Source of the DNA: an uncultured Gemmataceae bacterium
Lineage (GTDB): Bacteria; Planctomycetota; Planctomycetia; Gemmatales; Gemmataceae
Length of the DNA stretch: 64,000 bases
Direction: 5' to 3'
Assembly (NCBI GenBank): GCA_963750165.1
Contig: CAVVPN010000011.1
Coordinates: 576,001 to 640,000 of the forward strand
A program made the translations under genes and the position numbers. This document shows positions 1,005 to 35,059 of the stretch, in pieces; position 1 is the stretch's first letter, and each line of letters starts with the position of its first letter. Below the pieces are notes generated by a model. It saw only the letters and a program-made list of their open reading frames with translations. It had not been told where the DNA came from and ran no database searches.

Positions 1005-1194
1005 CGTGTGCCGTCCGTAGATTGGAGCTTTTTCCCTTCTTGCGATTGTCTCGTGCAGCCTGATCGAAGTCAATCCCGCAACTGGGCAACTCACGGCGGT
1101 CGGCGACTCCGCCCCGCGACTTTGCCACACCTCCGCTCCGCTTCGCTCCGAGTTTGTTCGTTCCCTCGGCTCAACCTGCCTGATCTGCTTGCCT

Positions 1195-1317
1195 GTTGTG
1201 GCAGGGTCTCCAGACCCTGCCACGGCGTTGGACCGAAGGTCTCCTTCGGGTGGTAGCGACAAAAAGAGGAGACCTTCGGTCGCTGCGGGTGGCATGGTCA
1301 GGAGACCTTGCCACAAC
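1195..1317. repeat. Composite REP-like palindrome
   Basis: gttgtggcagggtctcc...ggagaccttgccacaac outer arms with an inner gaccgaaggtctcc/ggagaccttcggtc pair. Confidence 0.8.
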
Positions 1318-1475
1318 GAGGCGATACGACCTTGCTCCTTACCATTCTCTATCGACTGCTGCCGTTCCCGCCTTCAAAATCGAAAAATAAAAAGATAGCA
1401 AATATATTTAATTCTATGCGCGGCCCCTCGCTGCGCTCGGGGCAAAGGGTAAAAAGACAAAGAGCATAGTGTAAA

Positions 1476-3775
1476 TCAGTCCAGGCGGAAACACACGCGG
1501 AAACCGATGATGTCGCTCCGGTCGCCGGGCGCGCTCCTGATACGGGCGGCGGAACGGCAGCCCCCGGGATTGCCGACCCACGACCCGCCGCGCAACACAC
1601 GGGCATCCTCCGATTTGATACCTTTGGGGTCGCTAATATACTTATTGAGATCGCCGATGTCCATTTCCGGGTAAGGTCCGTAATAATCCTCGCACCACTG
1701 CCAGACGTTGCCGGCCATGTCGTACAAACCCCAGGGGTTCGGCTGCTTGGTGCCGACCAGCTGCGTCGAGTTGTTGCTGTTGGCAAAGTACCAGGCGTAG
1801 GCGCCCAGCTGGTTCGCATCGTTGCCGAAGAAGTAGGCCGTCTGCGTGCCGGCCCGGGAAGCGTACTCAAACTCCGCCTCGGTCGGCAGCCGATACTCCC
1901 TGCCGTCCTGCGTCTTCGCTTGCAATTGCTTCAGGAAGTCCTTGCACCTGTTCCAGAAAACCATCTCCACGGGATAATTGTCACCGTTCTTGAAAGTGCT
2001 GGGATTGTCCCCCATGACCGCCCGCCATTGACCCTGGGTGACCGGGGTAACGCCCATGTAGAAGCCCTTTGTCAGCTTGACGCGGAACTGCCGTTCATTG
2101 TCGAACCGATTCGCTTCGCCCGGTGGACTGCCCATCAGGAAAGTGCCGGGCGGAATCCAGCGGAACTTCATGTCCACGGAGTTGGTGACGTGCAGGGGCG
2201 GTTCCTTGTCCCCTGGGATTTTGTCCGGTCCCTTGTCGCGGGGCGGGTTGGACGATTTTTTGGGATCGGGTTGGTTGACTACCGGGCTGGAAGGATCCGC
2301 AGGCCTGCCGCCGAAATTGGCCCACCAGATGCCGCCCACCAGCACCACCGCGAGGAGCACGGCCAGCAGCAGCCCCACCGCCACGCCGCCACCTGGCGCC
2401 GCTGTCTGTTCCTTGACGGGAGGACGCGGTCTCGAAACCGGGGGCGGCGGCGCCACCGGCCTGGCAACGGGGACCACCGCCACCGGCTCGTCCTGGATCG
2501 CCTGGAGCCGTTCGGCCAGGGCGTGGCCGTCGGCAGGCCGTTCCTGCGGGTCGTCATCGACGCAGGCTTCCAGCAAGTCCAGCACCGCCGCGTCCAGGCG
2601 CAGGTCGGCGACGCGCTTGCGCCACTTGCCCGCGGGCCGCTCCAACGTCAGGTCGCCCAGCAATAATTGGTGCCACATCACCCCGAGCGCGAACACGTCG
2701 TCGCGCACGTCGGCGTCCTTCATCAGCTTCTGCTGCGGTGAGGCGTACAGGGGAGTGTGGCGCCGCGCAGGGTGGGGGCCACGCTGCCGCGCGGCGTGGT
2801 GCGGCGCGACAACTCCAGGGCCTGGTGAGCGGTGACCTGGCTGATGCCGAAGTCGCAGATGCGCAGGCGGAGTTTGCCGTCGGGACCGTGACACACGAGG
2901 ATGTTGGCCGGTTTCAGGTCGCGATGGACAATCGGCACCTGAAGGCGATGGAACTGGCCCACGACGGTGGCGAGGCGGCGGACCACCACCGTCGCCTGCC
3001 GGGCGCGCTGCGCCGGCGTCAGGCTGACCCAGGTGCGCACCAGCCCCGCCAGGTCGTGCCCCTCGACGTATTCATACTTCAGCCACGGCGGGTCGCAGGT
3101 CAGATTGGCGTCCTGCAACGGGACGATGCCGTCGGCGCCGGCGAACCGGAGACCGGCCTGGGCCTTCATGGCGAGCTGGACCTGCCGGCCCTCGTGCTTG
3201 AGGAAGTGCTCACGCGCCACGGCATCGAGGCAGAATTTGAAGGCGGCGCGCAGGTCGGGGAAGCTGACGTTGCGCGCCAGCCAGACCTCGCCGAAGCCGC
3301 CCATGCCGAGCAGATCGACCAGTTCCCAGCCGCCCAGCGCCGCCGGCCGCTCGCCCGGCTGGAAGCGCGGCGCCTGCTCGGGCAACAACCGCAGCAGGTC
3401 TTCGGGCCGGCCGAGCGGCAGCCCGGGCGGGACGGTGGTGCCGGTCGGATCGTCGGGCCGCTTGAACGATTGCCGCACCGCGGACGGCAGCAGCGACAGG
3501 TAAATCGCCAGGGCCTGTCGCGCCGGGGCCGGCAGTTGGGCGGCGACTTCGCGGCTGACCTGCTCGGCCACGCGGCGGGCCTGGTCCGCGGTGACCTGCT
3601 GCGCGACCTGTTGCAACTCGGCGCGCAACTCGGCCTCGCGGCGGTGCGCGTGCCAGCGCTCCCAGGCATCCACGGCCACGTCGTAGAGGAATTCGCCCAG
3701 CGGCAATTCGCCGATCAGACCGCGAATGCCCTTGCCCACCACCGCCTGGCCCACGCAACGGAAGAACAGCAGCAT
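1476..3775 (-). CDS. Helical N-domain + Ser/Thr protein kinase + TM + FGE-sulfatase (SUMF1/CLec) domain protein; apparent frameshift near 2760
   Basis: GMGGFGEV, HRDLKPAN and DFG lie in ORF 2723-3775. TPLYASPQQ, DVFALG, a TM helix, RLPTEAEFEYA and NPWGLYDMAGNVWQWC lie in ORF 1476-2894. One extra base restores LRGAHTPLYAS. Confidence 0.88.
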
Positions 3776-9939: not shown

Positions 9940-11264
9940 ATGGCAGCCCACGACCATCATCACGAAAATGACTCGTTTTACCTCGACCAGCTGTGCCTGA
10001 TCGGCATCAGCGGGGCCTTCGCCGCCATCTGTGTGACGCTCTACCTCGTCCGGCAAAACATGCTGCGGGCCATGTTCGGCCCCCTCGACCAGACGTGGTT
10101 TGGATGGTTCGTGTTCGTGAGCGGCATCATCCTGGCGGTGCTGGTGTTTTTCCGCGCCCTCGCAGTCTGGCGCTCGGTCGGCAACCCGGCCCTGCGCGGC
10201 ATGGGCCCCGAGCACGACCACGGCTTCGAACACCATGAAGCCATGCACCCGGACGAGCCCCACCATCACCACGAGCACGGCGTCTGCGACCACGGCCACG
10301 AGCACGGTCACCATCACCACGCCGAGGAAGGCATTCAGGCGGCCCCCTCCCCTGCCCAGGCCGGCGCCGTGCCGCACACCCACACCCACGACCACGGGCA
10401 TGATCACGGCCACGGACATGACCACGACCACGACGATCACGATCACGGCTGGGCGCCGTGGCGTTACGCAGTGCTGCTGGTGCCGGTGGCCCTGTTCCTG
10501 CTGGGGCTGCCGAACCAGGGCCGGGCGGTCAAGGCGCTGGAGAACGTGGACACCACGCAGGAGGCGATGAATGTGGCCACCTTCCTCGCCCTGGGCCCGA
10601 ACCCGTTGCTGCAGCTGACGCCCCTGGCCGCCGCCACGGGCGGCAATAACAATGAGACCCCCATTTACCTCAACGGCACGCTGAGTTCGTTCAGTGAACT
10701 GAAGCCGGACATGAAGGTGTTCCTCAAGCTGGCGCGCGGCAACGTGATCGGTGTGGGCGTGGAGGAAATCCGCGATAAGGCTTCGGCCCACGGCAAGAGC
10801 GGCCTGGTGCCGGCGGTCATCAAGGCGGTCCACCCCGAGGACCGCAGCGTCACCCTGGAGCTGGACCGGGACGGCAGCAAGCAGACCGAGCGTGTGGATC
10901 TGCGCAGGGGCCGGTGTACGGCATGGACTTCAAGACGCTGGAAGCACTGGCCGCCAATGAGATCCAGCGGAAAAAATGGGAGGGCAAGGCGGTCCAGGTC
11001 GTCGGTCAGTACGCGCCGAAGGGAGATCGCTACTTCGGCCTGGCCCGGATGCGCATCCAGTGCTGCGGGGCCGACGCGGTGCAGCTCAATGTGCCCATTT
11101 TGTCGCGCGAGCCGATCCGCGGCTTCGCGGCCAACGACTGGATTCAGGTGACCGGCCGCGTGGAGTTCCGCCAGCAGGGCGGTCGCTGGAACACCGTGCT
11201 GCTCGTCAACCGCCGCGATCAGGTGCGACCCGCGCCGCCAGAGCCGGATATTTACATCCGCTGA
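9940..11264 (+). CDS. DUF1980/TIGR03943 (YcgQ-like) membrane protein with His-rich loop; apparent frameshift near 10905-10910
   Basis: TM helices and a His-rich linker. The C-terminal GKAVQVVG...CCGADA...DWIQVTG segment is in a shifted frame. It follows the DUF318 gene as expected. Confidence 0.8.
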
Positions 11265-32407: not shown

Positions 32408-35059
32408 ATGACCTGGACGTTCCAAACATTTCTCTCCAAATGGAAACCAACTGCCCGGTTCGTCGTCGCCTGTCTGCTCAAAGCCGCGGGCGGCGCAGCA
32501 GCGGCAACCGATCCTGCCAACGTGCAGCTTTACCAGTGCCTGACCGCCAGCAGCGAACAGGCGGCGGAACACCTCTTCGACACACTGGCCGTGGAGCAAC
32601 AGCGGGAAGTCGAAGACTGCTTCACGCGACTGCGACCATACCTCGACCAGCACGCCGCGTTGATCCGCCGGCTGGAAGCGCTCGCCGAGCAACAGGAAGG
32701 CCAAATCCTCTCCGTCGAATCACTGAGCGAGTTGATCCGCAGCCGGCTGCCGGCAGACCTGAAGCCGGCGTTGCACTGCTGCCTGGATCAACTGGGCGGT
32801 ATCCAGAAGCAACTGCGCGAGATCAAGGGCATCCTCAACAAGTTCAAGCCGGGTGTCTCCTACGAGAATGAGGAGGAACGCGCCATCCTGCGGCAACTGC
32901 GCGAGAAGTTCCGCAGCCTGCCTCCCGAGCAACAAAAGGCCGCCAACTGGTCCGAGATGGCCGACCGTCTCTTTGATGCCGGCCTGTTCGACCTGGCGCG
33001 CGAAGAGCACGAGAACGCCGCCAGGGCTGCCGAACAGGAGCACAACCGGGCACTGGCGGCGGCGGAGCATTTCAAGGCGTACCGCGCCGCTTGCGAGAAG
33101 GAGCGATGGCCGGCAGCGCTGGCGTCGTTGCGGCAGGCGGTCGAGTTGAACCCGCAGCTGGCGCCGTTCGACTGGGAGCAATACGAGTTGTTAGACATCC
33201 TGGGAGCGGGTGGTTTCGGCACCGTGTTCCGCTGCCGGGACCGGCACCTGGACAAAGAGGTCGCCATCAAGGCCATTCACACGGGTGAGTTGGCCCGCGG
33301 GGTTCAGGAGGTGTTCAAGGAAGCGGCCATCCTCACGAAGTTGAAGCACCCGGCCATCATCGCCGTCCAGGGGGCCCACTTCGCCGATGCGTCCAAACAG
33401 CGGCCCTACATCGTCATGGACTATTTTCCGAGCCAGAGCTTGGCAACGCGCTTGAAGCAGCACGGGCCGTTGCCCGTGGCAGAGTTCATGCGCGTCGTCC
33501 GGCCGGTTGCGGAGGCGTTGCGGGCCGCCCACCAGGCCAAACCCCATCCCGTTTACCACCGCGATGTCAAGCCGGACAATTTGTTGCTGGGAGAGGCAGG
33601 GCAAATCAAGGTGATCGACTACGGCCTGGCCGTGCGCGTGGCCGCGGCCCACAATAGCGTCTCGCGACCGGCGGAGCGCCGCACGGTGCGGGACCAGTGC
33701 TACGCCGGCACCCTCGAATACGCGCCCCCTGAGCAGAAGGGGGAACTGAGCCAACCGGTGGGGCCCTACTCGGACATTTACGCCTTCGGCCGCACGTGCT
33801 GCAAGCTACTGTTTGGCGTCCCCACCCTCCACCGCCATCCCACCGACCCCAAACCCCACCACTACAACCGCACGGTGGATCCCCTTCCTCAAGCCCTGGT
33901 GGACCTGCTGGAACGCTGTGGGCAACATAAAGTGGAAGACCGGCCGCAGGATTTTCAGGACGTGCTGGACGTGCTGGACGCCATCGCTCACGAACTGGAC
34001 CTCCAGCAACAGCGGCAGCGCGAGCATGAGGAAGAAGCCCGGCGGCGCGAAACTGCCGCGGTTCGCCAGCGCGCGGAGGCAGAGGAGCGTCAGCGCCTGA
34101 TACTGTTGCAACAGGAAGGCGAAAAGAAACTGGCCGAACTGCACCGCACCACCCTGGACGAGACGCGGGGCAAGCATTATGCGAATGACGCGGGGTTGCG
34201 CGAGTATTACCACATCACGGCGGAGCGAGCCGAACACATTCGGAACAATGTGTGCGACCTGTGGTTGAAGGCCAATCCGCCCAGGAAGGAACGCCCGGCG
34301 GGCGAATTGTTCACCAACAGTCTCGGCATGAAGTTCGCCTGGATCCCACCGGGCACGTTCCTCATGGGCAGCCCGCCAAACGAACCCGGCCATCAGCCCA
34401 ACGAATGCCAGCACCCCGTCACCTTGACCCGCGGCTTTTACATGGGCATCTTTCCGGTGACCCAGGACCAGTGGCGCGCGGTAACGGGCAAAGCGACGTC
34501 GCACTTCCGGGGCGACGCCTTGCTGGGCGGCCTGCAAATGACCCGGGCGCTCCTGTCCGCGGTGGAGAGCGAATTGCCGGTTCACCTCCGGGGTAACCGA
34601 CTGCCGGTGGAGCAGCTGTCGTGGGAGGATTGCCAGTCCTTCTTGAGGGAACTGAGCCGCCGGGACGGCCGGACCTACTGGCTGCCCACCGAGGCCCAGT
34701 GGGAGTATGCCTGCCGCGCGGGCACGACCACCGCGTATGCGTTCGGGGCCAACCTGACCCCGCAACGGGCTAACTTCAATGGCGGCCAGACGACCGCCGT
34801 CGGCTCGTATGCTCCCAACGCATGGGGGTTGTACGACATGCACGGCAACGTCTGGGAGTGGTGCGCCGACTTCTTTGCTGAGGATTACTACCTGAAAAGC
34901 CCGCAGGTGGACCCGGTCAACCTGGAGGACACCGGGAAGCGGTCGATTCGTGGCGGCGCCTGGATGTCAACGGACTGTCGCAGCGCCGTCCGGCAGGGGT
35001 GGAAGCCAACCTTTATCTATAAGGATCTCGGCGTGCGCGTGTGTTTCTTTCCGGAATGA
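32408..35059 (+). CDS. Helical N-domain + TPR + Ser/Thr kinase + coiled coil + FGE-sulfatase domain protein
   Basis: GAGGFGTV, HRDVKPDN, DYG, GTLEYAPPE, LPTEAQWEYACRAG and NAWGLYDMHGNVWEWC motifs. Confidence 0.92.
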   Translation: MTWTFQTFLSKWKPTARFVVACLLKAAGGAAAATDPANVQLYQCLTASSEQAAEHLFDTLAVEQQREVEDCFTRLRPYLDQHAALIRRLEALAEQQEGQILSVESLSELIRSRLPADLKPALHCCLDQLGGIQKQLREIKGILNKFKPGVSYENEEERAILRQLREKFRSLPPEQQKAANWSEMADRLFDAGLFDLAREEHENAARAAEQEHNRALAAAEHFKAYRAACEKERWPAALASLRQAVELNPQLAPFDWEQYELLDILGAGGFGTVFRCRDRHLDKEVAIKAIHTGELARGVQEVFKEAAILTKLKHPAIIAVQGAHFADASKQRPYIVMDYFPSQSLATRLKQHGPLPVAEFMRVVRPVAEALRAAHQAKPHPVYHRDVKPDNLLLGEAGQIKVIDYGLAVRVAAAHNSVSRPAERRTVRDQCYAGTLEYAPPEQKGELSQPVGPYSDIYAFGRTCCKLLFGVPTLHRHPTDPKPHHYNRTVDPLPQALVDLLERCGQHKVEDRPQDFQDVLDVLDAIAHELDLQQQRQREHEEEARRRETAAVRQRAEAEERQRLILLQQEGEKKLAELHRTTLDETRGKHYANDAGLREYYHITAERAEHIRNNVCDLWLKANPPRKERPAGELFTNSLGMKFAWIPPGTFLMGSPPNEPGHQPNECQHPVTLTRGFYMGIFPVTQDQWRAVTGKATSHFRGDALLGGLQMTRALLSAVESELPVHLRGNRLPVEQLSWEDCQSFLRELSRRDGRTYWLPTEAQWEYACRAGTTTAYAFGANLTPQRANFNGGQTTAVGSYAPNAWGLYDMHGNVWEWCADFFAEDYYLKSPQVDPVNLEDTGKRSIRGGAWMSTDCRSAVRQGWKPTFIYKDLGVRVCFFPE

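Follow-up and report, generated by a model that had tools for sequence, protein, structure and literature searches.

The mechanism of DGRs, adenine-specific retrohoming, is well established. Cyanobacterial variable proteins that join a kinase to a CLec domain have been published together with remote targets (Vallota-Eastman 2020, PMC7517822), and the sections of that paper devoted to them describe all3226, a dispersed remnant target with no RT nearby, its genome having kept DGRs. The DGR of Treponema denticola serves up to seven non-adjacent targets (Wu 2018, PMC5758913); the relevant parts of the same paper also cover remote targets, HRDC cassettes, and the distinction between IMH and IMH*. 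In clade 5 cellular DGRs of multicellular bacteria (Dore 2024, PMC10907252; Kaur 2020/2021, PMC7159879, PMC8195603), CLec/FGS tips are joined to signalling or effector domains, kinase and TM domains occur among the targets, and sensor roles (invader sensing) have been proposed. Kinase-annotated CLec targets are likewise listed in a section of PMC11661182. Because DGR targets are normally detected only beside an RT, remote targets escape RT-centred surveys, as the pertinent passages of PMC8144416 point out, and orphan targets such as the one presented here are overlooked. For the avd-type DGR family of this planctomycete group, we found no description in the literature on DGRs and Planctomycetes or Gemmata, whose supplements may list planctomycete DGRs.

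The window analysed here is a stretch of 64,000 nt (C11:576001-640000) from a 9.6 Mb planctomycete genome assembly. It contains a kinase–TM–CLec gene (Table 1) which we read, with a probability of roughly three in four, as a former avd-type DGR target whose cassette was lost or never brought along and whose tip is now frozen. Kinase–CLec targets, remote targets, and dispersed remnant targets are an already known kind, as far as the target descriptions of PMC7517822 go. Like those cyanobacterial targets, which are dispersed and in some cases have TM segments, the gene combines a Ser/Thr kinase with a C-terminal CLec domain bearing a 3' VR; unlike them it belongs to a planctomycete, places the TM helix between kinase and CLec, and has no cognate cassette in the assembly. 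Judged from its sequence, the locus appears to work like a DGR target and to descend from one, yet it is without the cognate TR, intact RT, and avd of an active remote target.

Table 1 Features of the kinase–CLec gene and its 3' tail (positions within the window)
Feature	Position	Strand	Basis or remark
Kinase–CLec gene	3775 to 1476	minus	Split over two frames (2723-3775, 1476-2894)
5' reading frame: unnamed N-terminal domain of ~140 aa and Ser/Thr kinase subdomains to the activation loop	2723..3775	minus	PF00069
Frame change within the conserved activation-loop motif	2757..2760	minus	tblastn of homologues
3' reading frame: kinase C-lobe, Pro-rich linker, TM helix, linker, CLec domain	1476..2894	minus	Pfam, homologue comparison
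Single TM helix, predicted	2322..2387	minus	Hydropathy only
FGE-type C-type lectin (CLec) domain	1476..2186	minus	PF03781
DGR variable region (VR)	1506..1601	minus	Match to TRs; substituted codons at 1506-1577
Constant 3' end, putative IMH	1476..1505	minus	Target form ends CTGGACTGA, template form CTGCACTTCC; function inferred
Pyrimidine tract	1444..1475	minus	Common to verified targets
5-bp GC hairpin	1423..1443	minus	Loop motif recurs behind related targets; one copy in genome
AT-rich stretch 3' of hairpin	1383..1417	minus	Likewise behind several A-only targets; putative element

The kinase of the 5' frame matches PF00069 (Pfam, E 2.6e-14), with the Gly-loop, catalytic Lys, and HRD and DFG motifs all located. 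The predicted TM helix has a mean hydropathy of 2.98 over a 19-residue window. Motifs and helix together are those of a Hanks-type Ser/Thr receptor kinase, although they do not lie in one frame. At the C-terminus of the gene product, the CLec domain (PF03781, E 3.9e-42) holds the VR. Its closest solved structure is the Treponema denticola TvpA (2Y3C, E 7.7e-32), likewise an FGE-type CLec variable protein of a DGR, and the alignment runs through the VR. The two differ in setting: the sections of PMC10907252 on TvpA present it as an outer-membrane lipoprotein, with an HRDC-containing cassette, whereas the window target is a kinase fusion of the avd-type family. A single-sequence AlphaFold model of the protein (pLDDT 33) was too poor for use.

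Homologues of the gene are single proteins of 614–1300 aa, and the N-terminal domain plus kinase forms a recurrent module with 143 longer relatives among 7474 candidates. These end in CLec domains or in what we take to be LRR, TPR, WD40 or Sel1-type domains. A comparison of the N-terminal domain with the ESM Atlas gave no match, an uninformative result. A CLec motif closes 34 of the 120 module relatives listed, and seven of these 34 have DGR-type last residues. Since a TM-like stretch occurs in just two of the 34 and in none of the seven, the combination of a TM helix with a DGR-type end is less usual within this kinase-module group.

The initial annotation described a membrane-spanning kinase receptor. 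The kinase–TM–CLec anatomy agrees with this description, on the Pfam matches, the TvpA match, and hydropathy, but the split of the gene over two frames had been overlooked. All six homologues compared by tblastn show the switch at about 2758, each crossing the site as one protein. Three of 52 conserved genes in the assembly contain a frame change, so an erroneous one is expected in ~10% of genes this long, and the change in the kinase may be either an assembly error or a real lesion. Other genes are apparently split between frames (window 9940-11264; L156:12799-13698), which fits an indel-prone assembly.

A class III aminotransferase gene lies upstream, and a DUF4365 gene, a small unknown gene, and a Tpt1/KptA gene lie downstream. 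No MoxR, vWA, STAND or other conflict-system gene was found among the annotated flanking genes, in which the locus, otherwise similar in its CLec tip on a signalling domain, differs from the clade 5 DGRs of the papers above. Between the target tail and DUF4365 there is a palindromic repeat of ~130 nt (window 1191-1321) with dozens of genomic copies (129 BLAST rows, both orientations counted).

The 3' end of the gene aligns ungapped over 127 nt with nine TRs of related avd-type DGRs, its length being identical to that of all nine. The window VR keeps every one of the 40 invariant non-A bases of these TRs and is changed at 14 of their 23 A positions (0/40 against 14/23), so that relative to these related, non-cognate TRs the differences are concentrated at adenines. 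Of its 93 non-A bases, 92 occur in at least one of the nine. Because some of the nine TRs were found by similarity to the window VR, the test was redone with five RT-adjacent TRs, one of which had also been picked up by VR similarity, and with the last 30 nt dropped: 1 of 36 invariant non-A bases was changed against 13 of 21 A positions. An nhmmer profile of 11 TRs, run over the genome, placed the window VR first (E 1.9e-13; runner-up 1.4e-3). As the initial annotation had proposed, the 3' end is, on this pattern of bases, very probably a genuine DGR-type variable region.

The family supports the same origin. The region is matched in 58 of 200 other genomes of the same bacterial family, several of them through the non-coding tail at ~75% identity. 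Avd-type cassettes in the family (L048, L084, L087, L088, L104, L111) share with the window locus the VR length, the IMH/IMH* switch, the pyrimidine tract, and the hairpin, and their VRs differ from their TRs at A only. The adenine-only pattern of DGR change is thereby demonstrated in relatives; in L048, a complete DGR in the order target-VR-TR-Avd-RT, all 16 VR–TR mismatches fall at a template A, and its Avd matches bAvd in Pfam. Unlike the window locus, these cassettes have a TR and RT beside the target, and none is cognate to the window VR: of all 28 TR-like sequences collected, even the nearest has 15 non-A differences from it over 111 nt.

Every element quoted in the initial annotation (codons, stop, pyrimidine tract, GC hairpin) is present on the minus strand at 1423-1601. 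A G/C switch between CTGGACTGA in the VR and CTGCACTTCC in the TR also divides VR from TR in intact cassettes, and the window carries the target form. These ends of targets and templates agree with the IMH/IMH* distinction as set out in the corresponding section of PMC5758913. A putative IMH that differs from the IMH* of the TR, followed by an inverted repeat (the hairpin being weak by energy), is the expected target arrangement, and it is present. The claim of a tract and a GCCCC...GGGGC hairpin after the stop stands for presence and conservation in relatives, where the loop motif was found in 19 of 60 related tails. It does not extend to stability, in which the hairpin does not stand out from shuffled sequences (z 0.26); the argument for this candidate element is its conservation, not its folding energy.

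Ten of 31 VR–TR pairs differ at A only, the remote pairs L113 and L157 among them. Adenine-only pairs make up 8 of 13 with a full tail and 2 of 18 without, a difference that is not significant (Mann–Whitney p 0.13). L049 and L050 retain their tails despite 9–15 non-A mismatches, and their genome has no RT match; we read these VR–TR pairs as decaying cassettes. The rule that an intact tail means an active target was rejected on both counts. As the rank test is not significant and decayed loci keep their tails, an intact tail probably shows past targeting and not present activity. One genome (L106-L124) has just one matching TR alongside dispersed targets that number ten or more, and of these only the targets with the pyrimidine–hairpin tail agree with the TR at all non-A bases.

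The machinery that would serve the window VR was not found in the assembly. A genome-wide search for a TR-like repeat near a DGR RT and avd was run and returned nothing cognate: in an A-blind scan of the whole assembly the best non-self match, of low complexity, had 20 non-A mismatches of 106, and nhmmer with the 11 TRs found no cognate TR. PF22296 gave no Avd match, and a profile of 12 family Avds reached at best E 0.18. Seven PF00078 matches comprise group II intron-type and retron-type RTs and one other RT, with no intact DGR RT; the labels of the split group II intron RT and of an 858-aa RT are provisional readings of their sequences. The group II intron-type RT lies in two pieces ~2.4 kb apart (C11:809061-812951), and two retron-like RTs are located at C11:2295701-2297089 and C3:797801-799450. 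The initial annotation had suggested a remote target with a hypermutable tip. Both parts require a cassette elsewhere in the genome, and none was found in the assembly as searched; TR/RT cassettes of the right type exist only in other genomes of the family. The absence of TR and DGR RT that the annotation named as refuting thus holds for the genome but not for its family.

Searches beyond the genome gave a similar picture. With an exact 3' anchor, neither metagenome nor genome contigs gave a match, and relaxed scans found 16 and 20 loci, none cognate. Viral contigs contained no match to the VR family pattern; an RT search of them gave 15 loci, two at 64% identity, whose TR is not cognate. Plasmids gave a single weak match to the family pattern. 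In read data, no listed run contains the organism at useful depth, and no RNA run was listed as containing it. One soil run contained 0.10 of the words, and three runs yielded a single near-identical contig of 226 nt, which lies outside the VR, with none across it, an uninformative result.

We therefore hypothesize the following history for a former target, since template and enzyme are absent from the assembly and the tip is probably frozen. The gene product would be a receptor-like Ser/Thr kinase with a cytoplasmic kinase, one inner-membrane TM helix, and an outward-facing CLec domain, a ligand on the CLec tip presumably controlling phosphorylation. The last ~125 nt of the gene would have been written by an avd-type DGR: RT and Avd may have copied the RNA of the TR, making errors at adenines, after which the cDNA would have replaced the VR at the IMH and hairpin. 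Later the TR-avd-RT cassette was probably lost, or the target came without it, which would leave the ligand-binding tip fixed on one variant.

Since the assembly is 93% complete and in 12 contigs, the cassette may have been missed. It could lie on an unbinned replicon or in the ~7% of the genome that is unassembled; the change of frame would then be an assembly error of the frequency estimated above, and the tip could still be diversifying as a live remote target. The IMH, tract, hairpin, and AT-rich stretch are all intact at the window VR, and the same family contains remote targets with adenine-only change (18 of 18 differences at A in L113, 17 of 17 in L157). In one genome, moreover, all three tailed targets are free of non-A change, against 3–19 such changes in seven untailed ones. 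Against this, the 9.6 Mb assembled show no sign of a TR, an Avd or a cognate RT, tails persist on the decayed L049 and L050, and the family pattern is missing from the viral contigs and has one weak match in plasmids. A live cassette in unassembled DNA is thus the less likely case; we infer loss rather than an assembly gap, and we consider a target that is still diversifying unlikely.

Far less probable is that the gene is an ordinary FGE/CLec paralog given a mutagenised look by high GC3 and scaffold conservation. The initial annotation had noted that the codons at Asn positions are NNC or AAT, and indeed, where the consensus of the nine TRs reads AAC, the VR has ten NNC codons and one AAT, 11 in all. 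Its caveat about GC3 was just: 11 of 11 codons ending in C or T has P ~0.001 from the third-position usage of the genome and 0.08 given the amino acids, and the paralog at C3:737118, with only 6 of 40 mismatches, is nearly as extreme (10/11 NNY). By itself the codon pattern is weak evidence, and the strong signal lies in the match to TRs. Since some of the invariant positions belong to scaffold codons, a paralog control matters. Thirteen FGE places were examined; one was unparsed and one was the gene itself, and the 11 others differ at 6–17 of the 40 invariant non-A bases and score 60–82 of 93. The paralog at 32408, cited earlier as lacking the pattern, is a valid negative (15/40 mismatches, 4/11 NNY). 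The modest hairpin energy would suit an ordinary paralog, but the VR has the length of all nine TRs, its 92 of 93 bases are not approached by the paralogs, and the ~75% identity of the non-coding DNA after the stop to the tails of verified targets is not explained by protein constraint.

DGR RT sequence occurs in the genome solely as a remnant at C10:23142-23465 (108 aa, then truncated), with up to 68% identity to RTs of family cassettes having TR–VR pairs. Its nearest cassettes form a second class (target-HRDC-RT-TR) with other 3' ends: targets end in RVPSG-like residues and TRs are without the CTGCACT end. An own-class target tip lies 640 nt upstream of the remnant; its HRDC gene and TR were not found. 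At C10:22462-23465 (L058/L059) the target tip is joined to a phage capsid fragment (PF05065), followed by two small unknown genes at the HRDC place and the first 108 aa of the RT. A bare HRDC-class VR and tail, with 34 of 36 invariant bases kept and no CLec gene detected upstream, occurs at C4:79257-79399, and an FGE paralog with HRDC-class last residues at C10:72772-73494 has 8 of 36 invariant bases changed and is perhaps an older ex-target. That this HRDC-type DGR served the window target, as the sole DGR RT sequence in the genome might suggest, was rejected as highly improbable on the differing 3' ends, the remnant's own target tip, and the profile scores of the window VR (E 1.9e-13 on avd-type TRs, 2.6e-5 on HRDC-type). 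With HRDC debris on C10 and C4, the window VR, and no TR, Avd or full RT, the genome seems to show past DGR traffic of two classes with no working cassette in its assembled part.

Orphan targets are common in the family. Among 252 family genomes, the VR-end pattern is found in 33, a DGR RT match in 35, and the TR pattern in nine. Counted by hand, 14 of the 33 VR-pattern genomes have an RT match and six have the TR pattern, and 11 of the 19 without an RT match are at least 90% complete; the figure of 19 of 33 is possibly inflated, as the RT search scored no more than eight candidates per genome and many relatives are fragmented. An RT match is enriched where a VR is present (14 of 33 genomes against 21 of 219 others, kin not being independent). 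These counts, together with the intact tail and the second-class DGR debris, are compatible with a more speculative idea, which we regard as doubtful, namely hit-and-run diversification, where receptor genes of the family would retain their homing tails intact although no cassette is resident, and would be overwritten each time an avd-type TR-avd-RT cassette moves through. If true, the kinase–TM–CLec protein would be a receptor kinase that stays in place, open to re-targeting, with its hypervariable tip outside the cytoplasm.

Taken alone, the window locus is an ordinary example of a former target and is probably inactive. The family counts suggest that planctomycete DGR targets, kinase receptors included, are more widespread than cassettes, and the conserved tail offers a handle for finding orphan targets and for testing which features allow a remote gene to be targeted.
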